A stretch of DNA of 40,208 bases from the IMG/VR virus record IMGVR_UViG_2671180254_000014, one strand, 5' to 3'. How positions within the stretch are numbered: position 1 is the stretch's first letter; the number at the start of each line of letters is the position of its first letter. The notes below the pieces were generated by a model that worked only from the letters and a program-made list of their open reading frames with translations, had not been told where the DNA came from and searched no databases. This document shows, piece after piece, positions 6,962 through 40,208 of this stretch. The position numbers and the translations under genes are program-made. The DNA is from a virus. Taxonomy: Duplodnaviria > Heunggongvirae > Uroviricota > Caudoviricetes.

Positions 6962-7513
6962 ATGATGAAATTACAACCCATGGGACTAAAAGGTCGCGCC
7001 CCCGCTCATGTCCGTCCGTGGACACCTGAAGAAGATGCGCTGCTGATTGCGCTTTATTCATCCACCCCGGTTAAGGATATTGCTGCCAGAATAAAAAGAA
7101 CTGTCTGGGCTGTATATAACCGGACTGGTGTATTGCGCAGTTCATACCCGGAGTTACTGAAATATAAACACCCAAGATTTACACCTGATGAAGATAAGTT
7201 TATTCGAAAAAATGCCAGAACAATGACCTGCCAGCAAATGGGAGAATATCTCGGACGTAATAAAGATTCTGTCAGATGTCGGGCAGGAATGATTGGTGCT
7301 GGATTAACAAAGTGCGGAGAGTTACGCCCCGGCACGCGCATATCTGATGATGATGTACGTCTTATACGTGCGCTGCGTGATTCCGATTACCCACGCCGTC
7401 TGTCATTCCGGGAAATTGGCGAAAAGTTTGGAATATCTGAACATTCTGCTCACGCAGTTTATTACCGTCGCCGGACTGCCGAGGACGCTGTATTACGGGA
7501 GTTAACGCCATGA
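6962..7513 (+). CDS. hypothetical protein with Myb/SANT-like W-x-EED repeats
   Basis: 183-aa ORF; WTPEEDALL and FTPDEDKFI repeats plus a basic C-terminal segment; domain call is by eye. Confidence 0.45.
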   Translation: MMKLQPMGLKGRAPAHVRPWTPEEDALLIALYSSTPVKDIAARIKRTVWAVYNRTGVLRSSYPELLKYKHPRFTPDEDKFIRKNARTMTCQQMGEYLGRNKDSVRCRAGMIGAGLTKCGELRPGTRISDDDVRLIRALRDSDYPRRLSFREIGEKFGISEHSAHAVYYRRRTAEDAVLRELTP

Positions 7514-7842
7514 TAACGACCTTATTTGTTGAATCAGATGAACCTCTTGTGTGTGCCGCCGGAATGCCGCTCTGTGGCGGAACGCTGACCGGCGTTTATT
7601 TCGGGGATTTGCGCGGTTATCCCTGGCATTCACTGGATGACGCATTTCCGCCTGATATGGAGGCTGTCGTGCTGATTGTTCAGTATGGTGACCAACAGGA
7701 ACTGCGCATCGGCCATATGGGGTATGAAGGCTTTTTTATTGATGAAGAAACCGGAGCCTGCCTTGAAGATGAGGACGGACAGGTGACGCACTGGTGCCAT
7801 CTTTCGGCCTTGCCGGAATTACAGGGGATACATAATGGATGA
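7510..7842 (+). CDS. hypothetical acidic early protein
   Basis: 110-aa ORF with ATGA overlap to previous gene. Confidence 0.45.
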   Translation: MITTLFVESDEPLVCAAGMPLCGGTLTGVYFGDLRGYPWHSLDDAFPPDMEAVVLIVQYGDQQELRIGHMGYEGFFIDEETGACLEDEDGQVTHWCHLSALPELQGIHNG

Positions 7843-7978
7843 GCAAATTGTTGAATGTCCCACCTGTGGAAATGAGGACCCGGAGTATCTGAAAGAGTGC
7901 CCACATTGTGGTGAGATAAAATGTAACCACTGCGATATGGGCGACGACACTGCATGTATAAATTGTGAGGATGAATAA
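7835..7978 (+). CDS. small Cys-rich zinc-ribbon-like protein (47 aa)
   Basis: Not in the ORF track (under 60 aa); ATG 7835, TAA 7976-7978; four CxxC pairs (CPTC, CPHC, CNHC, CINC); coupled to flanking genes. Confidence 0.4.
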   Translation: MDEQIVECPTCGNEDPEYLKECPHCGEIKCNHCDMGDDTACINCEDE

Positions 7979-7979
7979 T

Positions 7980-8267
7980 ATGGAAAAAGAAATCAAATTT
8001 GCGCCTAAATCTATCGACGAAGAACTGGCTAAAATCGGCATGCTTGAACGTATGCGGGACATTATCGAATATGCGATAAAAGAAAATCTTGCAGCCAGAG
8101 AAGCCCTTTTGATAATGGAGCGGGAGATTAACCTGATTAAGGATGCTGTATCTCTGGATAATAAAATAGCCCGCGAGGAATACGTTCGCCGCAGGCTCGG
8201 TGTTGATGGTTCAGCAATTCTTACATCTGAACATTATGCAAAAATTTTTAATCTTTTTCAGCGGTAA
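7980..8267 (+). CDS. hypothetical early protein
   Basis: ATG 7980 inside ORF 7965..8267, 1 nt after zinc-ribbon stop; GAGGA RBS. Confidence 0.45.
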   Translation: MEKEIKFAPKSIDEELAKIGMLERMRDIIEYAIKENLAAREALLIMEREINLIKDAVSLDNKIAREEYVRRRLGVDGSAILTSEHYAKIFNLFQR

Positions 8268-8487
8268 TCCCCATACAGGCCCGGAGATTGTCGAAATGCC
8301 AGTCGGTATTAATATATGAGCCATCCTGGATATCTTCTGTATTTTCCGGGGTAGAGTTTTTTTGAGCGAGATTGATAATATGTATTGCCTCCTCACGGGA
8401 AATCAGCCCCTTATCGAACAGGGTTACCATAAGATTTCCAGCCATTGTGAATGCGGCAACATCAAGTGCATTTTTTATATCTGACAT
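8248..8487 (-). CDS. hypothetical protein, reverse-oriented within early operon
   Basis: 79-aa minus-strand ORF with AAGGAAAAA RBS about 9 nt upstream of ATG; no plus-strand ORF covers 8268-8557. Confidence 0.4.
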   Translation of the reverse strand: MSDIKNALDVAAFTMAGNLMVTLFDKGLISREEAIHIINLAQKNSTPENTEDIQDGSYINTDWHFDNLRACMGITAEKD

Positions 8488-8515
8488 AGATTTTTCCTTT
8501 TATGTTAATTGACAT

Positions 8516-8543
8516 GGCGGTGCGGTAACACCGCCCATTTTTT
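8516..8543 (+). terminator. candidate intrinsic terminator (GC stem plus T6)
   Basis: GGCGGTG-cggtaa-CACCGCC hairpin followed by cattttttat; lies between the reverse ORF and gemA. Confidence 0.4.
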
Positions 8544-8557
8544 ATGGAGCCACGATA

Positions 8558-9043
8558 ATGAATCGCGCTTCCCTGATTACCTTAATACATGTCGCAAAAC
8601 GCGATCTACAGCTTGACCATGATACCTATACATCCGCGCTGCTGGCAGCCACCGGCAAATCCAGTTGCCGTGATATGTCACCCGGTGAGTTATCCCGCGT
8701 GCTGGATGTTTTCAAAAAACGCGGTTTTAAAGTGCGTCANNNNNNNNNNNNNNNNNNNNNNNNNNNNNNNNNNNNNNNNNNNNNNNNNNNNNNNNNNNNN
8801 NNNNNNNNNNNNNNNNNNNNNNNNNNNNNNNNNNNNNNNNNNNNNNNNNNNNNNNNNNNNNNNNNNNNNNNNNNNNNNNNNNNNNNNNNNNNNNNNNNNN
8901 NNNNNNNNNNNNNNNNNNNNNNNNNNNNNNNNNNNNNNNNNNNNNNNNNNNNNNNNNNNNNNNNNNNNNNNNNNNNNNNNNNNNNNNNNNNNNNNNNNNN
9001 NNNCAGCCCTGGATATGTCGGAACGTGCAGTGATGAGTTATGA
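8558..9043 (+). CDS. GemA-like protein (Mu gene 16 family), interrupted by N-run
   Basis: N-terminus MNRASLITLIHVAKRDLQLDHDTY... resembles Mu GemA; N-run 8740-9003 hides the middle, and the 3' end could be 9043 or 9083 depending on frame. Confidence 0.5.
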   Translation: MNRASLITLIHVAKRDLQLDHDTYTSALLAATGKSSCRDMSPGELSRVLDVFKKRGFKVRXXXXXXXXXXXXXXXXXXXXXXXXXXXXXXXXXXXXXXXXXXXXXXXXXXXXXXXXXXXXXXXXXXXXXXXXXXXXXXXXXXXXXXXXXSPGYVGTCSDEL

Positions 9044-9153
9044 GCGTGTTTGCAGGCTGTATGAAAAATCATTCCCCCGTTAACCCCAAATCCCGCCACA
9101 GCGCGGGATTTTTATTTTAAACTTGCCCTGTGTAATGATGACCGGAGGCGGGT

Positions 9154-9576
9154 ATGGCTGAAACACAGATGAGCATGTTTGGTGACAGCGAACAGCTGCA
9201 CGCGCTGATTGACCGTCTGGATGATATTCCTGATGATGAGCTGAAAAAGAACTGGCCCGGCACGCTGCGGGACCTGGTTGATGTGATCAGTGCTGAACTG
9301 CACCGTCAGGGGATTGAACCTGCTCAGGCGGGAATGCTTGCCCGTAAGGTTGCAGCCGCACAGGCCGGGTACATGGGCGGGCGTGGTTATTATCTCCCGG
9401 TCGGTGAATCCCTTTTCACCGAACTGCGCAATAATGAAATTTTTTCCCGCTGGAGCCAGGGCGAAAAAATTGAAACCCTGCGCCGCCACTACCAGATGTC
9501 AGAGACGCAGATTTACTCCGTTATCCGCAACCAGCGTCGCCTGCATCAGGAGCGCACGCAGCCCCGGCTTTTCTGA
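9154..9576 (+). CDS. Mor/C-family transcriptional activator
   Basis: 140-aa ORF; acidic N-terminus, central GGxxYYLPxG-like core and C-terminal helix-turn-helix region as in Mu Mor/C; only one family member seen. Confidence 0.8.
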   Translation: MAETQMSMFGDSEQLHALIDRLDDIPDDELKKNWPGTLRDLVDVISAELHRQGIEPAQAGMLARKVAAAQAGYMGGRGYYLPVGESLFTELRNNEIFSRWSQGEKIETLRRHYQMSETQIYSVIRNQRRLHQERTQPRLF

Positions 9577-9647
9577 TATTCCGCAAATCCTGCCCCCTTT
9601 TCCTCACGGTTACGCTGACTCAGAGAACACCATGAGACAGCGTAACA

Positions 9648-10148
9648 ATGCCAAAACTCCCCGCACCCCTGCGTAAAAAGCTGATTGCCCTTGTTCTGGC
9701 CGGAGCCGGGACGTTCACCATTGCCACGCACTACACCGGCTACTGGGAAGGGAAAGAAAACACCACGTACATTGATCCCACCGGCACCCCCACCATCTGT
9801 TACGGCCATACCGGCCCGGATGTGAAACCGGGGATGACAAAAACTGATGAAGAGTGTCTGGAGCTGCTGGAAAAGGACATGAAATGGGCCTTTGCGGCTA
9901 TCGATCGTCATGTTCAGGTGCCGCTTACCCGTGGTCAGACGGTGGCGCTGGCCTCCTGGATTTTCTGGGCCGGTGAAACGAACTTTCGCAACTCCACGCT
10001 CCTGCGCCTTATCAATGCCGGGCAGATGCCCGCGTCCTGTAAGCAGTATATCCGCTGGATTTATTCAAAGGGGGTAAAACTCCCCGGTCTTGAGGCCCGC
10101 CGTTCGGCGGATGAATGGTTATGTCGTTACGATTTGCCGAAAGTCTGA
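9648..10148 (+). CDS. endolysin, lysozyme family, probable signal-anchor-release type
   Basis: 166-aa ORF; N-terminal Gly/Ala-rich hydrophobic segment LIALVLAGAGTFTIA followed by lysozyme-like core (YWEGKENTTYIDPTGTPTICYGHT). Confidence 0.8.
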   Translation: MPKLPAPLRKKLIALVLAGAGTFTIATHYTGYWEGKENTTYIDPTGTPTICYGHTGPDVKPGMTKTDEECLELLEKDMKWAFAAIDRHVQVPLTRGQTVALASWIFWAGETNFRNSTLLRLINAGQMPASCKQYIRWIYSKGVKLPGLEARRSADEWLCRYDLPKV

Positions 10149-15722: not shown

Positions 15723-17037
15723 TTTAGGTTATGCCGCCACGCTTCCCTCAAAAGAGGCGGTAGCATACTTCCGTGTCAAAGGGGCGCATATCAGCTGGAA
15801 CTGGTTCGAAACAGCCGCGGATGTTCATGCCCGCTCATTCACGGCAGCAAAAGCGGCACGCCTGGATGTGGTGACCACGTTACAGGCCGAAGTGCAGCGG
15901 GCCATTGATGAGGGAATTTCACAGAAAGCATTTATCCGCACGCTGACGCCACGCCTGCAAAAGCTGGGATGGTGGGGAAAGCAGATTGTGGTGGACAGCG
16001 ACGGTAACGCGGAAGAAGTGCAACTGGGCAGTCCCCGTCGTCTGGCGCTGATTTACAACGTGAACACCCGTGTGGCTTACAATGCCGGGCGTTACACGCA
16101 GATGATGAACAACACGGACACGCATCCGTTCTGGCAGTATGTGGCGGTCATGGACAGCCGTACCCGCCCGTCGCATTCCGCCCTTAACGGTCTGGTATTC
16201 CGCTATGACGATCCGTTCTGGAAAACACACTACCCACCTAATGGCTGGAACTGCCGCTGCCGTGTGCGGCCATTGTCTCAGGCTCGTCTGGATGCAATGG
16301 GGTTATCCGTTTCATCCGGTGAGGATCATCTCTCCACCCGCAATGTTGAGGCTGGCGTGGATAAACAGACCGGAGAAGTCAGAGAAATGCCGGTGACCAC
16401 ATATTCAGATGGCACCAGAACCATGACACCGGATGTGGGCTGGTCATATAACCCCGGCTCGGCAGCGTTCGGCACAGACCAGGCGCTGATCCGCAAACTG
16501 ATCGAGGTGAAAAGCCCGGCGTTACGGGAAATGGTGGTTCAGGAGATGAACAACAGCCCGGAGCGGCAGCTGGCGTTCCGCATCTGGGCAAAAAACATCA
16601 TGCAGACCCGGCGAGGTGGTAACGATATCCGCACGCTGGGCTTTATGACTGAAAGCATTGCGCAGGCAGTGGAAAGCCGGACGGGAACGCCACCGGCCCG
16701 CCTGCTGGCGATGAGCGGTAAAAATGTGCTCCATGCAGACAGTGTGAAACATCAGAATGACGGCATCGCCCTGATGCCAGAGGACTTCGGGCGCTTACCG
16801 GCAATGCTGGCAAAGCCAAAAGCGGTGCTGTGGGACAAACGGCACAAAAATCTGATGTATATCGTGGAAAATAAGGATGGCAGTGTGCAGATTGCCGTTA
16901 ATGCACCGTACAGTCTGAAACGTCAGCCCGACAAACTGGATGTGATTGTGAATGCTTACCGGGTTATCAATATGGATAAGCTGAAATCGGATATCCGGGG
17001 CGGAATGCTTGAGGTGCTGGAAGGACAAATTGATTAA
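15706..17037 (+). CDS. head morphogenesis protein (Mu F-like)
   Basis: 443-aa ORF after portal; Mu F position. Confidence 0.75.
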   Translation: MTQGIDLGYAATLPSKEAVAYFRVKGAHISWNWFETAADVHARSFTAAKAARLDVVTTLQAEVQRAIDEGISQKAFIRTLTPRLQKLGWWGKQIVVDSDGNAEEVQLGSPRRLALIYNVNTRVAYNAGRYTQMMNNTDTHPFWQYVAVMDSRTRPSHSALNGLVFRYDDPFWKTHYPPNGWNCRCRVRPLSQARLDAMGLSVSSGEDHLSTRNVEAGVDKQTGEVREMPVTTYSDGTRTMTPDVGWSYNPGSAAFGTDQALIRKLIEVKSPALREMVVQEMNNSPERQLAFRIWAKNIMQTRRGGNDIRTLGFMTESIAQAVESRTGTPPARLLAMSGKNVLHADSVKHQNDGIALMPEDFGRLPAMLAKPKAVLWDKRHKNLMYIVENKDGSVQIAVNAPYSLKRQPDKLDVIVNAYRVINMDKLKSDIRGGMLEVLEGQID

Positions 17038-17158
17038 CGGTCAGTGGCGGGGGTCGAACCCGCATACATGATCCACCCGGAGGCAGGCACCGACTTTACC
17101 AGTTAAGCGTACACTGACCGCCTGTTTATTTTATATTCATCCTTTATGCGGAGGCAAT

Positions 17159-31220: not shown

Positions 31221-32096
31221 TGTTTCATGTTGATAATAATTCCGGCGTGGCGAATATGCCTGCGCTGGCACCGGCGCAGAGTAATACCACCACCTGGTTT
31301 ACCGAAGGTGACGGACAAAAAGGTATCAGCTGGATTGGTCAGGACTGGCTGAATATTCTCCAGGCCGAACTGCTGAATATTCTGGCTGAAGCCAGTATTC
31401 AGCCGGATAAGGCGCAGTTAAACCAGCTTACGCTGTCCATTAAAGCCATTATCGCTGCGAATGCCTTTTCCCGGAAAAATAACCTGAAAGAAATTGCTGA
31501 TGCCGGTGCGGAGGCCCAGCGTCTGGCCCGTGGTTATCTTGGTCTGGGGACGCTTGCCACAAAAAACAGTCTTGGTCCCGCTGACGTTAATGCCCTGGCG
31601 AAGGATCAGAATCTCGCCGACCTGGAGAATAAGGGAACCGCCCGTAATAATCTGGATGTTTACAGNNNNNNNNNNNNNNNNNNNNNNNNNNNNNNNNNNN
31701 NNNNNNNNNNNNNNNNNNNNNNNNNNNNNNNNNNNNNNNNNNNNNNNNNNNNNNNNNNNNNNNNNNNNNNNNNNNNNNNNNNNNNNNNNNNNNNNNNNNN
31801 NNNNNNNNNNNNNNNNNNNNNNNNNNNNNNNNNNNNNNNNNNNNNNNNNNNNNNNNNNNNNNNNNNNNNNNNNNNNNNNNNNNNNNNNNNNNNNNNNNNN
31901 NNNNNNNNNNNNNNNNNNNNNNNNNNNGCCCGGAACATGGGAAAGCTGGGATCTGAATCTGGGGGGCGGCAATGTTCTTACCGGAATTAAAGTACAGGAT
32001 GTCGGTAAGAATACGGCAGATAACGTCGGCGGCGTGTATTACCGGCCGTTGCAGTATCTGTTAAATGGAGCATGGGTGACGGCTGCAAGTATATAA
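31220..32096 (+). CDS. tail fibre protein (constant N-terminal part plus currently joined variable C-terminus), interrupted by N-run
   Basis: N-terminal 148 aa to 31665, N-run 31666-31927, C-terminal 56 aa to TAA 32094-32096 in a different frame, so the gap length is not true. Confidence 0.65.
31531..31665 (+). repeat. left inverted repeat of invertible tail-fibre segment (at least 135 bp)
   Basis: Identical to the reverse complement of 33146-33280; ends at an N-run so true extent unknown. Confidence 0.85.
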
Positions 32097-33280: not shown

Positions 33281-33331
33281 NNNNNNNNNNNNNNNNNNNN
33301 NNNNNNNNNNNNNNNNNNNNNNNNNNNNNNN

Positions 33332-38644: not shown

Positions 38645-40208
38645 GTGCGCATGTGGGATGTCATTGATTTATCGCGCTGGCAGTTTGCTCTGACCGCGCT
38701 GTATCACTTTTTATTTGTACCCCTTACCCTGGGGCTGATTTTTTTGCTGGCTATCATGGAAACCATTTACGTGGTCACCGGCAAAACAATCTACCGCGAT
38801 ATGACGCGCTTCTGGGGTAAGCTCTTCGGTATCAACTTTGCTCTTGGCGTGGCTACCGGCCTGACCATGGAGTTTCAGTTTGGTACTAACTGGTCATTCT
38901 ATTCCAACTATGTGGGCGATATTTTTGGCGCACCGCTGGCGATGGAAGCATTAATGGCCTTCTTCCTCGAATCCACCTTTGTCGGGCTTTTCTTCTTCGG
39001 CTGGCAGCGGCTGAATAAATACCAGCACCTGCTGGTGACGTGGCTGGTGGCGTTCGGTTCAAATCTCTCTGCATTGTGGATATTGAATGCCAACGGTTGG
39101 ATGCAATACCCGACCGGTGCGCATTTTGATATCGACACCCTACGTATGGAGATGNNNNNNNNNNNNNNNNNNNNNNNNNNNNNNNNNNNNNNNNNNNNNN
39201 NNNNNNNNNNNNNNNNNNNNNNNNNNNNNNNNNNNNNNNNNNNNNNNNNNNNNNNNNNNNNNNNNNNNNNNNNNNNNNNNNNNNNNNNNNNNNNNNNNNN
39301 NNNNNNNNNNNNNNNNNNNNNNNNNNNNNNNNNNNNNNNNNNNNNNNNNNNNNNNNNNNNNNNNNNNNNNNNNNNNNNNNNNNNNNNNNNNNNNNNNNNN
39401 NNNNNNNNNNNNNNNNNNNNTGGCGGCGATGGAAGGGGAGTGGCAAACGGAACCTGCTCCTGCACCGTTCCATGTGGTTGCCTGGCCGGAACAGGATCAA
39501 GAGCGTAACGCCTTTGCCATCAAAATTCCCGCGCTGTTAGGGATCCTCGCCACTCACTCATTAGATAAAACCGTGCCGGGTCTGAAAAATTTGATGGCTG
39601 AAACCTACCCACGCTTGCAACGCGGACGTATGGCCTGGCTGTTAATGCAGGAAATATCGCAAGGCAATCGTGAGCCGCATGTGTTGCAGGCATTCCGGGA
39701 ACTGGAAGGTGACCTGGGCTACGGCATGTTGCTCTCCCGCTATGCGCCGGATATGAATCATGTCACAGCCGCACAGTACCAGGCGGCGATGCGTGGCGCG
39801 ATACCTCAGGTTGCGCCGGTATTCTGGAGTTTCCGCATCATGGTGGGCTGTGGTTCCCTGCCGCTACTGGTGATGCTGATTGCGCTTGTCCAGACGCTGC
39901 GTGGCAAAATCGACCAGCATCGCTGGGTGCTGAAAATGGCGCTCTGGAGTTTGCCGTTGCCGTGGATTGCGATTGAAGCCGGGTGGTTTATGACCGAGTT
40001 TGGTCGTCAGCCGTGGGCGATACAGGACATCTTACCGACATACTCCGCGCACTCCGCTTTAACCACAGGACAACTGGCTTTCTCACTGATCATGATCGTA
40101 GGGCTTTACACCCTGTTCTTAATCGCCGAAGTCTACCTGATGCAGAAATATGCCCGTCTGGGGCCGAGCGCGATGCAGAGTGAACAACCGACGCAGCAAC
40201 AGGGGTAA
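38645..40208 (+). CDS. appC: cytochrome bd-II ubiquinol oxidase subunit I (AppC/CbdA), interrupted by N-run
   Basis: N-terminus [28 protein letters not shown]...[22 protein letters not shown] is cytochrome bd subunit I, AppC paralog rather than CydA; N-run 39155-39420; stop at 40206-40208. Confidence 0.85.

Follow-up and report, generated by a model that had tools for sequence, protein, structure and literature searches.

A minus-strand gene of the phage Mu gp15 family, its gp14-like partner and a covarying hairpin at the entrance of gemA in a Mu-like prophage of Escherichia coli

What does a gene do that is transcribed against the early operon of a Mu-like phage, and is the gem unit that follows it insulated from this operon or linked to it? 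Both questions are raised by the stretch of DNA analysed here (IMG/VR record IMGVR_UViG_2671180254_000014, 40,208 nucleotides (nt), hereafter the window), a Mu-like prophage of Escherichia coli that carries, directly upstream of gemA, an open reading frame (ORF) of 79 amino acids (aa) on the minus strand and a GC-rich hairpin. An earlier note, made from the letters of the window, had seen in this ORF an independently regulated insert inside the early operon. Our comparison supports a minus-strand gene that is selected, widespread, and tied both to a gp14-like gene and to a covarying hairpin at the gemA entrance. The gene is not a new kind of element. The family of Mu gp15 was already known; what is new is a diverged member, a homologue in phage D108, a strict link between gp14 and gp15, and the covarying hairpin tied to the presence of a reverse gene. 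Gene 15 of Mu, although this phage is a model system, is uncharacterised, and NC_000929 and AF083977.1 disagree on its strand.

The minus-strand gene and its kinship with Mu gp15

The features of the locus, in positions of the window, are the following.

7980-8267, plus strand: gp14-like gene, 95 aa, convergent with the gp15-like gene (phrog_6075, E 5e-44)
8248-8487, minus strand: gp15-like gene, 79 aa (supported by phrog_32893, a predicted coding sequence and substitution rates)
8248-8267: overlap of the 3′ ends of the gp14-like and gp15-like genes, 20 nt, from their coordinates
8356-8362: T7 homopolymer (A7 on the coding strand) within the gp15-like gene, site of a frameshifted allele
8495-8499, minus strand: Shine-Dalgarno sequence AAGGA of the gp15-like gene, 7 nt 5′ of the ATG; AAGGA or AGGA at the same place in relatives
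8516-8535, plus strand: GC-rich hairpin, 7 bp, six of seven pairs G-C, loop CGGTAA (terminator scan, fold and covariation)
8538-8543, plus strand: T6 tract 3′ of the hairpin, together with it resembling an intrinsic terminator
8546-8560, plus strand: gemA ribosome-binding site GGAG (8546-8549) and start codon ATG (8558)
8558-9043, plus strand: gemA, gp16 family (Pfam GemA at E 7e-10 on the unmasked 60 aa; 'gp16 family protein' in the automatic annotation)

On sequence evidence, the minus-strand ORF at 8248-8487 is a genuine protein-coding gene. It starts with an ATG at 8487, preceded by AAGGA (complement of 8495-8499), and the 79-aa frame with a strong ribosome-binding site described in the earlier note is therefore confirmed. 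On the other strand, no ORF of at least 50 aa is found between 8268 and 8557. Just four plus-strand ORFs of 35-46 aa touch this interval (8200-8319, 8362-8484, 8372-8512 and 8509-8616), in agreement with the gap in plus-strand genes pointed out before. The protein matches phrog_32893 across its full length with an E-value of 8e-45. In a prophage of E. coli JE86-ST05, 99.8% identical to window positions 7800-8740, the Prokaryotic Genome Annotation Pipeline (PGAP) calls the ORF a hypothetical protein, WP_001280088.1.

The ratio of nonsynonymous to synonymous substitution rates (dN/dS), estimated against two diverged alleles, is 0.25-0.26 in the frame of the gene, 0.65-1.2 in the other five frames and 0.26-0.29 in the neighbour genes. 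A HMMER search of 1.8 billion representatives with the 79-aa protein retrieved a small family of nine matches, down to 35% identity; a search of GTDB representatives with the Klebsiella homologue gave no match. Relatives at 35-48% identity share the motifs FD.AAF..GN.L..L..KG..S..EA at the N-terminus and WHLDNL at the C-terminus, and since the motifs are conserved at both ends of the protein, the reading frame is fixed through to the C-terminus. The ORF is thus conserved, with homologues and with purifying selection confined to its own frame; lack of conservation had been named beforehand as part of the outcome that would speak against it.

Several alleles of the 79-aa protein (P0005, P0007, P0008, P0009 and P0010) are frameshifted and run into an alternative minus-strand frame (ORF 8211-8396). 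In P0008 the frame shifts at the A7/T7 run at 8356-8362, and in the four others it shifts nearby. These alleles are probably the result of decay or of sequencing errors. A programmed frameshift at the A7 run was considered and rejected, as the alternative frame has a dN/dS of 0.65 and the alleles break at different sites.

A remote-homology search with the 79-aa protein, proposed earlier as a check, revealed its relation to Mu gp15. The family profile aligned with Mu gp15 with an hhalign probability of 92.9% (E 3.6e-7, over 54 residues) and with the D108/L100 subtype with a probability of 97.9% (L100 member). The three families phrog_32893, phrog_8747 and phrog_38610 match one another reciprocally; Mu gp15 reaches phrog_32893 at E 6e-4 and the protein P0015 reaches phrog_8747 at E 1e-4. 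By these profile matches, the window gene belongs to the family of phage Mu gp15 (Mup15) as one of its diverged members.

The same kinship is seen in position. In RefSeq NC_000929, Mup15 (gp15, NP_050619.1) lies on the minus strand at Mu 7896-8162, and the order is gp14, the 88-aa minus-strand ORF, a hairpin AGGCGGTG-TTGCAG-CACCGCC and gemA. A counterpart of Mup15 is annotated in SfMu and vB_YpM_Tongde too. With identities of 22-48%, genes of this type hold one and the same place and direction in the phages Mu, D108 and SfMu as well as in prophages of Klebsiella and further Mu-like prophages. In every distant relative that was read (loci L007-L016, from Klebsiella and other enterobacterial Mu-like prophages) the gene is on the opposite strand directly upstream of gemA, and in every homologue read it diverges from gemA across a spacer of ~70 bp. 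At its other end it overlaps or abuts the preceding early gene, by 62 nt in Mu, by 4-98 nt in L007, L011 and L014 and by 20 nt in the window.

Mu gp15 (phrog_8747) therefore shares with the window gene its position and orientation, a gp14 homologue on one side, the GGCGGTG/CACCGCC hairpin and gemA on the other side, a similar size (88 against 79 aa) and a homologous N-terminal region of 54 residues. It differs by its low identity, 22% only, and by its C-terminal half, where the helix motif of the window type, WHFDNL, is barely recognisable; the Mu hairpin has no T tract, and gemA is coupled to mor in Mu, whereas a terminator and then a C-like gene come after it in the window. The D108-type reverse ORF (phrog_38610; L097 and L100) has in common with the window gene the slot, the strand, the hairpin, the gp14 partner and a homologous N-terminal domain, but it is longer (84-119 aa) and has the C-terminal motif LLNKLW, with an acidic N-terminal extension in the D108 member.

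In D108 itself (GQ357916 7853-8212, minus strand; L111 1111-1470) we found an unannotated 119-aa gp15-like ORF that matches phrog_38610 at E 8e-83. It sits in the 376-bp 'gap' that separates gene 14 from gemA, next to the same hairpin. In Mu, the GenBank re-annotation AF083977.1 (2022) places a 55-aa gene with its own ribosome-binding site, Mu_54, on the plus strand at Mu 7960-8127 (L109 2461-2628), antisense to gp15. The two records thus conflict, with gp15 on the minus strand in RefSeq (L109 2397-2663) and Mu_54 on the plus strand in AF083977.1. Mu_54 has no match in PHROG, and this, together with the conservation of the family, favours the minus-strand gene, as far as can be judged from the sequences compared. 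On the strength of this comparison, the annotation of Mu should retain the reverse gene, and that of D108 should gain the gp15-like ORF. A literature search on Mup15, DUF2513, Pgem or semi-early returned nothing relevant.

The gp15-like protein is acidic, with a mass of 8.8 kDa and a pI of 4.5. It matches PHROG families of 'unknown function' only, and against PDB sequence profiles it gave insignificant matches to Hsp70 lids alone (E >= 0.03). AlphaFold2 (AF2) models it as four helices with a mean predicted local distance difference test (pLDDT) score of 78.8. The best notable Foldseek match of this model is an old 134-aa reading of the same Mu region, 'F-134', with a template modelling (TM) score of 0.56, which is not significant. 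The AF2 model of the gp14-like protein is all-helical too (pLDDT 86.9) and has no fold match in the PDB. A transmembrane toxin was considered and rejected: the hydrophobic stretch of the gp15-like protein has ~15 residues only and is predicted to be packed in the helical bundle. No DNA-binding motif or domain was recognised in the gp15-like protein. Our guess is that its partner may be a protein, either gp14 or a target in the host, and not DNA.

The gp14-like partner and the variable slot before gemA

The gene that converges on the gp15-like gene is 49% identical to Mu gp14 (E 1e-30); a longer version of it, a 100-aa ORF, would start at a GTG at 7965. To see how regularly the two go together, 86 gemA loci were surveyed, 78 from IMG/VR and 8 read earlier. 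A gp14-like gene lies directly upstream in all 15 loci that have a gp15-like gene and in none of the 71 that do not. In 11 loci the slot before gemA is taken by a reverse-strand DUF2513-like gene (phrog_585), and gp14 is absent. About 60 loci have neither gene, and in many of them a plus-strand gene runs into gemA or is coupled to it, as in Sp18-type E. coli prophages. The slot is therefore variable among related prophages, where it can be empty, gp15-like or DUF2513-like.

From this survey, some Mu-like phages have a conserved convergent pair of gp14-like and gp15-like genes with overlapping 3′ ends, placed where the early (Pe) operon gives way to the gemA transcription unit. We infer that the pair is accessory, since Sp18-type relatives lack it and others have a DUF2513-like gene in its stead. 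Its strict co-occurrence argues for an old module and against a recent moron. Of the 'independently regulated insert' of the earlier note, one part stands, that of an accessory gene with an orientation of its own beside a terminator-like hairpin. The idea of a recent insertion is not borne out, as the Mu gp15 homologue is found in the same slot and orientation in Mu, D108 and SfMu, at 22-48% identity across the family, and always beside a gp14-like gene.

The whole 7800-8740 region is present in 13 of 5426 complete E. coli genomes, and its gemA part in 231. Homology between the window and the prophage TOE17 breaks at 7825 and resumes at 8539. The DUF2513-like occupant of the slot has ~136 aa (L002 3045-3455, and L029, L033-L035, L054, L055, L063, L065 and L101); the hairpin is present at most of these loci, with L065 and L101 as exceptions. 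That of TOE17 reaches DUF2513 at E 7e-5, below the gathering score; the window protein is not matched by the Pfam model of DUF2513 (PF10711).

Nature has provided several disruptions of the reverse gene. About 30% of the Mu query has no counterpart in two Yersinia phages, vB_YpM_3 and vB_YpM_23. In vB_YpM_3 (L115 340-400, read directly) the deletion removes the start and most of the gp15 ORF, and gp14 and the hairpin are kept. Since both are isolated, plaque-forming phages, gp15 appears dispensable for growth. In E. coli 2012EL-2448 (L005 3224-3992), an IS1A copy is inserted in the 5′ arm of the hairpin, at the equivalent of window 8516-8525; it separates the reverse gene from gemA and is flanked by the target duplication GGCGGTGCG (read by eye). 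Judged by these natural deletions, by the IS1 insertion and by the frameshifted alleles, the gp15-like gene appears dispensable.

The hairpin and the operon boundary

The hairpin is made of GGCGGTG (8516-8522), the loop CGGTAA and CACCGCC (8529-8535), and is followed by CA and the T6 tract (8538-8543), which brings it to 15 nt before gemA. All elements of the plus-strand terminator that the earlier note had placed here can be read in the DNA. In the window the hairpin has the anatomy of a predicted plus-strand intrinsic terminator, with its 7-bp stem containing six G-C pairs and with CA and T6 on the plus strand; this anatomy is weak or absent in Mu.

The hairpin alone is within chance: it folds at -13.3 kcal/mol with a z-score of only -1.5, and over 2.2 kb the terminator scan gave three terminator-like sites, while shuffled sequences gave 2.0 +/- 1.6. 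What makes it real is its conservation. In an alignment of 14 distinct sequences, 98% of the cells are paired, none of 500 shuffles reaches the observed values, and the signal collapses when the register is slid. Compensatory changes affect three of the seven pairs (U-A to C-G, G-C to C-G and G-C to U-A). Three wobble pairs read G.U in plus-strand RNA; in its complement they would turn into A.C mismatches. The plus-strand tail after the stem is T-rich in all loci, though unevenly, from T6 in the window to a weak CCCTTTCC in Mu.

Among 59 distinct upstream sequences from related loci, 13 of the 15 with a reverse gene have a GC hairpin whose end lies 14-25 nt short of the gemA ATG, as does 1 of the 44 without one (Fisher p 3.5e-10). 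It is present in both Mu and D108. These alignments show the hairpin to be a selected structure. Both the comparison of Mu with D108 and that of the window with TOE17 have a breakpoint of homology at the hairpin. We rejected the hairpin as the terminator of the reverse gene itself, since it lies upstream of this gene and faces the other way, and a sigma-54 reading of it was dismissed by eye for its wrong spacing. No Rfam family matched positions 8100-8739 at E <= 1.

Known intrinsic terminators resemble the window hairpin in their GC-rich stem, here of 7 bp, their short loop, their T tract, here on the plus strand, and their place at the border of a transcription unit. They differ from it in that the window hairpin stands 15 nt before a gene that has to be expressed and that the strength of its T tract varies between loci, its activity being predicted. 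The window hairpin can also be compared with intercistronic stabilising stem-loops such as the one at the 5′ end of the ompA mRNA, and it adjoins a ribosome-binding site.

Does the reverse gene then lie inside an operon, as the earlier note had it? In GenBank AF083977.1, Mu 8151-8217 bears the label 'Semi-early promoter, PMID 9454718', an interval that begins at the gp15 start codon and ends shortly after the hairpin. In addition, the gem operon is constitutively expressed in lysogens according to Paolozzi and Ghelardini (1992), as cited in a passage of PMC3820752. The annotated promoter and this expression in lysogens imply that gemA is not simply a distal early gene. With a separate 'semi-early' promoter annotated for gemA in Mu, the reverse gene sits between two transcription units, and its position within a single operon did not hold.

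Because it points against the early operon, the reverse gene is out of reach of the early promoter and would require a promoter of its own, to its right. The best leftward candidate (CTGCCA-18-TATCAT, 8648-8619) lies inside gemA, is weak and is not conserved in position. On the plus strand, a weak candidate recurs whose -35 is the complement of the gp15 start (yTGACA) and whose predicted start is near the base of the hairpin; its position is not conserved either. A perfect TTGACA at 8509-8514 was rejected as a promoter, having no -10 at a usable distance and no conservation. The block GGAG..ACGAT.ATG before gemA is nearly invariant across relatives in the hairpin alignment. The spacer between the gemA Shine-Dalgarno sequence and ATG (GGAGGTACGATCATG in most loci) is unusually conserved, and an overlapping signal is possible. 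No minus-strand terminator-like site was found in 7500-9700, and because the 3′ ends of the two convergent genes overlap by 20 nt, a terminator could not fit in between. The reverse gene may be regulated independently, though no convincing promoter was found for it. Opposite-strand exclusion genes have been described in the Fc02 paper (PMC9936078), near the repressor and not at the gemA locus.

Readings of the locus and its surroundings

We favour, with a rough probability of 0.6, a reading in which the gp15-like and gp14-like genes are an accessory pair placed at an operon boundary, and the hairpin is a plus-strand attenuator, a structure at an mRNA end, or both. The reverse gene would be transcribed from its own promoter on its right; it would probably be on when Pe is repressed, in lysogeny, and be silenced after induction by convergent early transcription and antisense pairing. 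The rightward early transcript would then carry ~290 nt of untranslated antisense RNA, which would invite Rho termination and could form a duplex if the leftward mRNA is present. The hairpin would act in this rightward RNA. With its T6 tract it would probably attenuate read-through of the ~290-nt stretch, and it may also give a protective stem-loop to the gemA mRNA beside its ribosome-binding site. At least part of the gemA transcription would then start at a 'semi-early' promoter of its own, like that in the Mu annotation. A role in attenuation or protection would explain why the hairpin is found only where a reverse gene breaks translational coupling.

A number of observations weigh against this reading. 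A terminator 15 nt ahead of a gene that needs expression is awkward, and the poor T tract of the Mu hairpin implies that termination is not its whole or universal role. In most loci the very sequence of the stem, GGCGGTG/CACCGCC, is conserved, which would also fit a DNA-binding site or recombinational spread, and the hairpin is absent from two loci with a DUF2513-like gene (L065 and L101). As the loci are related to one another, the test of association between hairpin and reverse gene overstates their independence. Consensus and position weight matrix scans of both strands in 12 loci found no strong sigma-70 promoter conserved in position for either gene. The protein is of little help: the gp15-like protein has no match in Pfam (none at E <= 0.1) or NCBIfam, its AF2 model has no Foldseek match in PDB or BFVD at E <= 0.001, and PADLOC models gave no family at E <= 1 with the gp15-like, gp14-like or DUF2513-like proteins.

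Other explanations share part of this evidence. The spacer of ~70 bp or its surroundings could hold overlapping promoters of the reverse gene and gemA, face-to-face or back-to-back, forming a regulatory switch in which leftward transcription or the protein would repress gemA and the downstream activator in the lysogen and early transcription would tip the balance after induction. The strictly conserved divergent layout, the Mu gemA promoter annotated in that very spacer, the recurrent plus-strand candidate on the complement of the reverse-gene start and the unusual conservation before the gemA ATG would all fit. We nevertheless think such a switch unlikely, because many Mu-like phages have no reverse gene at all, gp15 is deleted in a viable phage, the protein has no recognisable DNA-binding domain, the promoter candidates score poorly and are not conserved in position, and what comes after gemA in the window is a terminator instead of mor, which weakens the link to late-gene timing. 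A recently acquired moron, that is a foreign cassette of promoter, gene and terminator in the early operon of this prophage, is slightly less probable. The gene has a G+C content of 41.7% against 54% for the window, and the slot varies among E. coli Mu-like prophages, being empty in those of the Sp18 type and DUF2513-like in TOE17, whose homology to the window is interrupted from 7825 to 8539. However, the gp13- and gp14-like neighbours are equally low in G+C (40-44%), gp14 co-occurs strictly, and the family holds its place and orientation from Mu and D108 to SfMu and Klebsiella prophages down to 22-48% identity. Phage morons in the sense of Juhala and Hendrix are, like the window gene, accessory, dispensable, lower in G+C than the genome, oriented independently of the operon and variable in position. 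Unlike them, the window gene has no terminator downstream, where its 3′ end overlaps the gp14-like gene, and it belongs to a conserved pair that is ancient in the lineage; the hairpin lies upstream, points in the opposite direction and belongs to the gemA side.

It is also doubtful, though conceivable, that gp14 and gp15 form a two-protein accessory system (toxin/antidote-like, anti-defence or exclusion) with mutual antisense regulation, to which the proximity of gemA would be incidental. The co-occurrence in 15 of 15 loci against 0 of 71, the conserved 3′ overlap, the strong diversification of the C-terminal half of gp15-like proteins between subfamilies and the existence of frameshifted alleles are in line with it, and both proteins are small and predicted to be helical, with no known fold in the models. 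Against it stands the lack of any PADLOC match; moreover, the deletion of gp15 with gp14 kept argues against gp15 as an essential antidote, while gp15 as the toxic or effector partner would still be compatible. Lastly, the minus strand might be non-coding, the interval being a leader or holding a small plus-strand gene such as the 55-aa Mu_54 annotated antisense to gp15 in AF083977.1. This we regard as very improbable, given that the window has no comparable plus-strand ORF, Mu_54 matches no PHROG family, purifying selection acts in the minus frame alone, and the encoded proteins remain a family down to 22-48% identity, sharing motifs at either end.

A more far-reaching proposal, which we put forward only tentatively and hold to be on the unlikely side, is that the gp14/gp15 pair and the hairpin make up one control module setting whether and when the gem unit is on, independently of the c repressor, or else that the pair is a novel two-protein system for host interaction or anti-defence with a 3′ antisense overlap. 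In the first version, leftward gp15 transcription would be antisense to the end of the early operon and the hairpin would gate entry into gemA; the module would then also affect the cascade of late-gene activators where mor follows gemA. If either version were true, a Mu gene that has had no explanation ever since the genome sequence appeared would gain a function, and the choice between Mup15 and Mu_54 would be settled.

Beyond gemA, the window has two further features of interest.

9088-9111, plus strand: second, stronger terminator-like hairpin, 9 bp followed by TTATTTT, between gemA and the C-like activator gene
9154-9576: Mor/C-family (C-like) activator gene, 40% identical to Mu C and 28% to Mor

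Because gemA is followed by the strong terminator-like hairpin, the gem unit in the window would consist of gemA alone. This phage has no mor gene coupled to gemA, and its sole Mor/C-family gene is closer to Mu C.

The PGAP table of the JE86-ST05 prophage gives the gene order as repressor, ner-like gene, transposase A, B, small early genes, Gam, small genes, gemA, Mor/C-family gene and lysis genes. Apart from the reverse gene, the early region in this table is a single run of plus-strand genes, as had been stated for the window. A block of low G+C content (40-44% against 54% for the window) extends over 7835-8557 and comprises a 47-aa zinc-ribbon gene, the gp14-like gene, the gp15-like gene and the spacer. 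PGAP also places a minus-strand 'tRNA-OTHER' between the minor head protein and virion morphogenesis genes (L001 18227-18306, about window 17026-17105); ARAGORN found no tRNA anywhere in the window. Stretches masked with N occupy 8740-9003, in the middle of gemA, and 31666-31927, 33281-33331 and 39155-39420.

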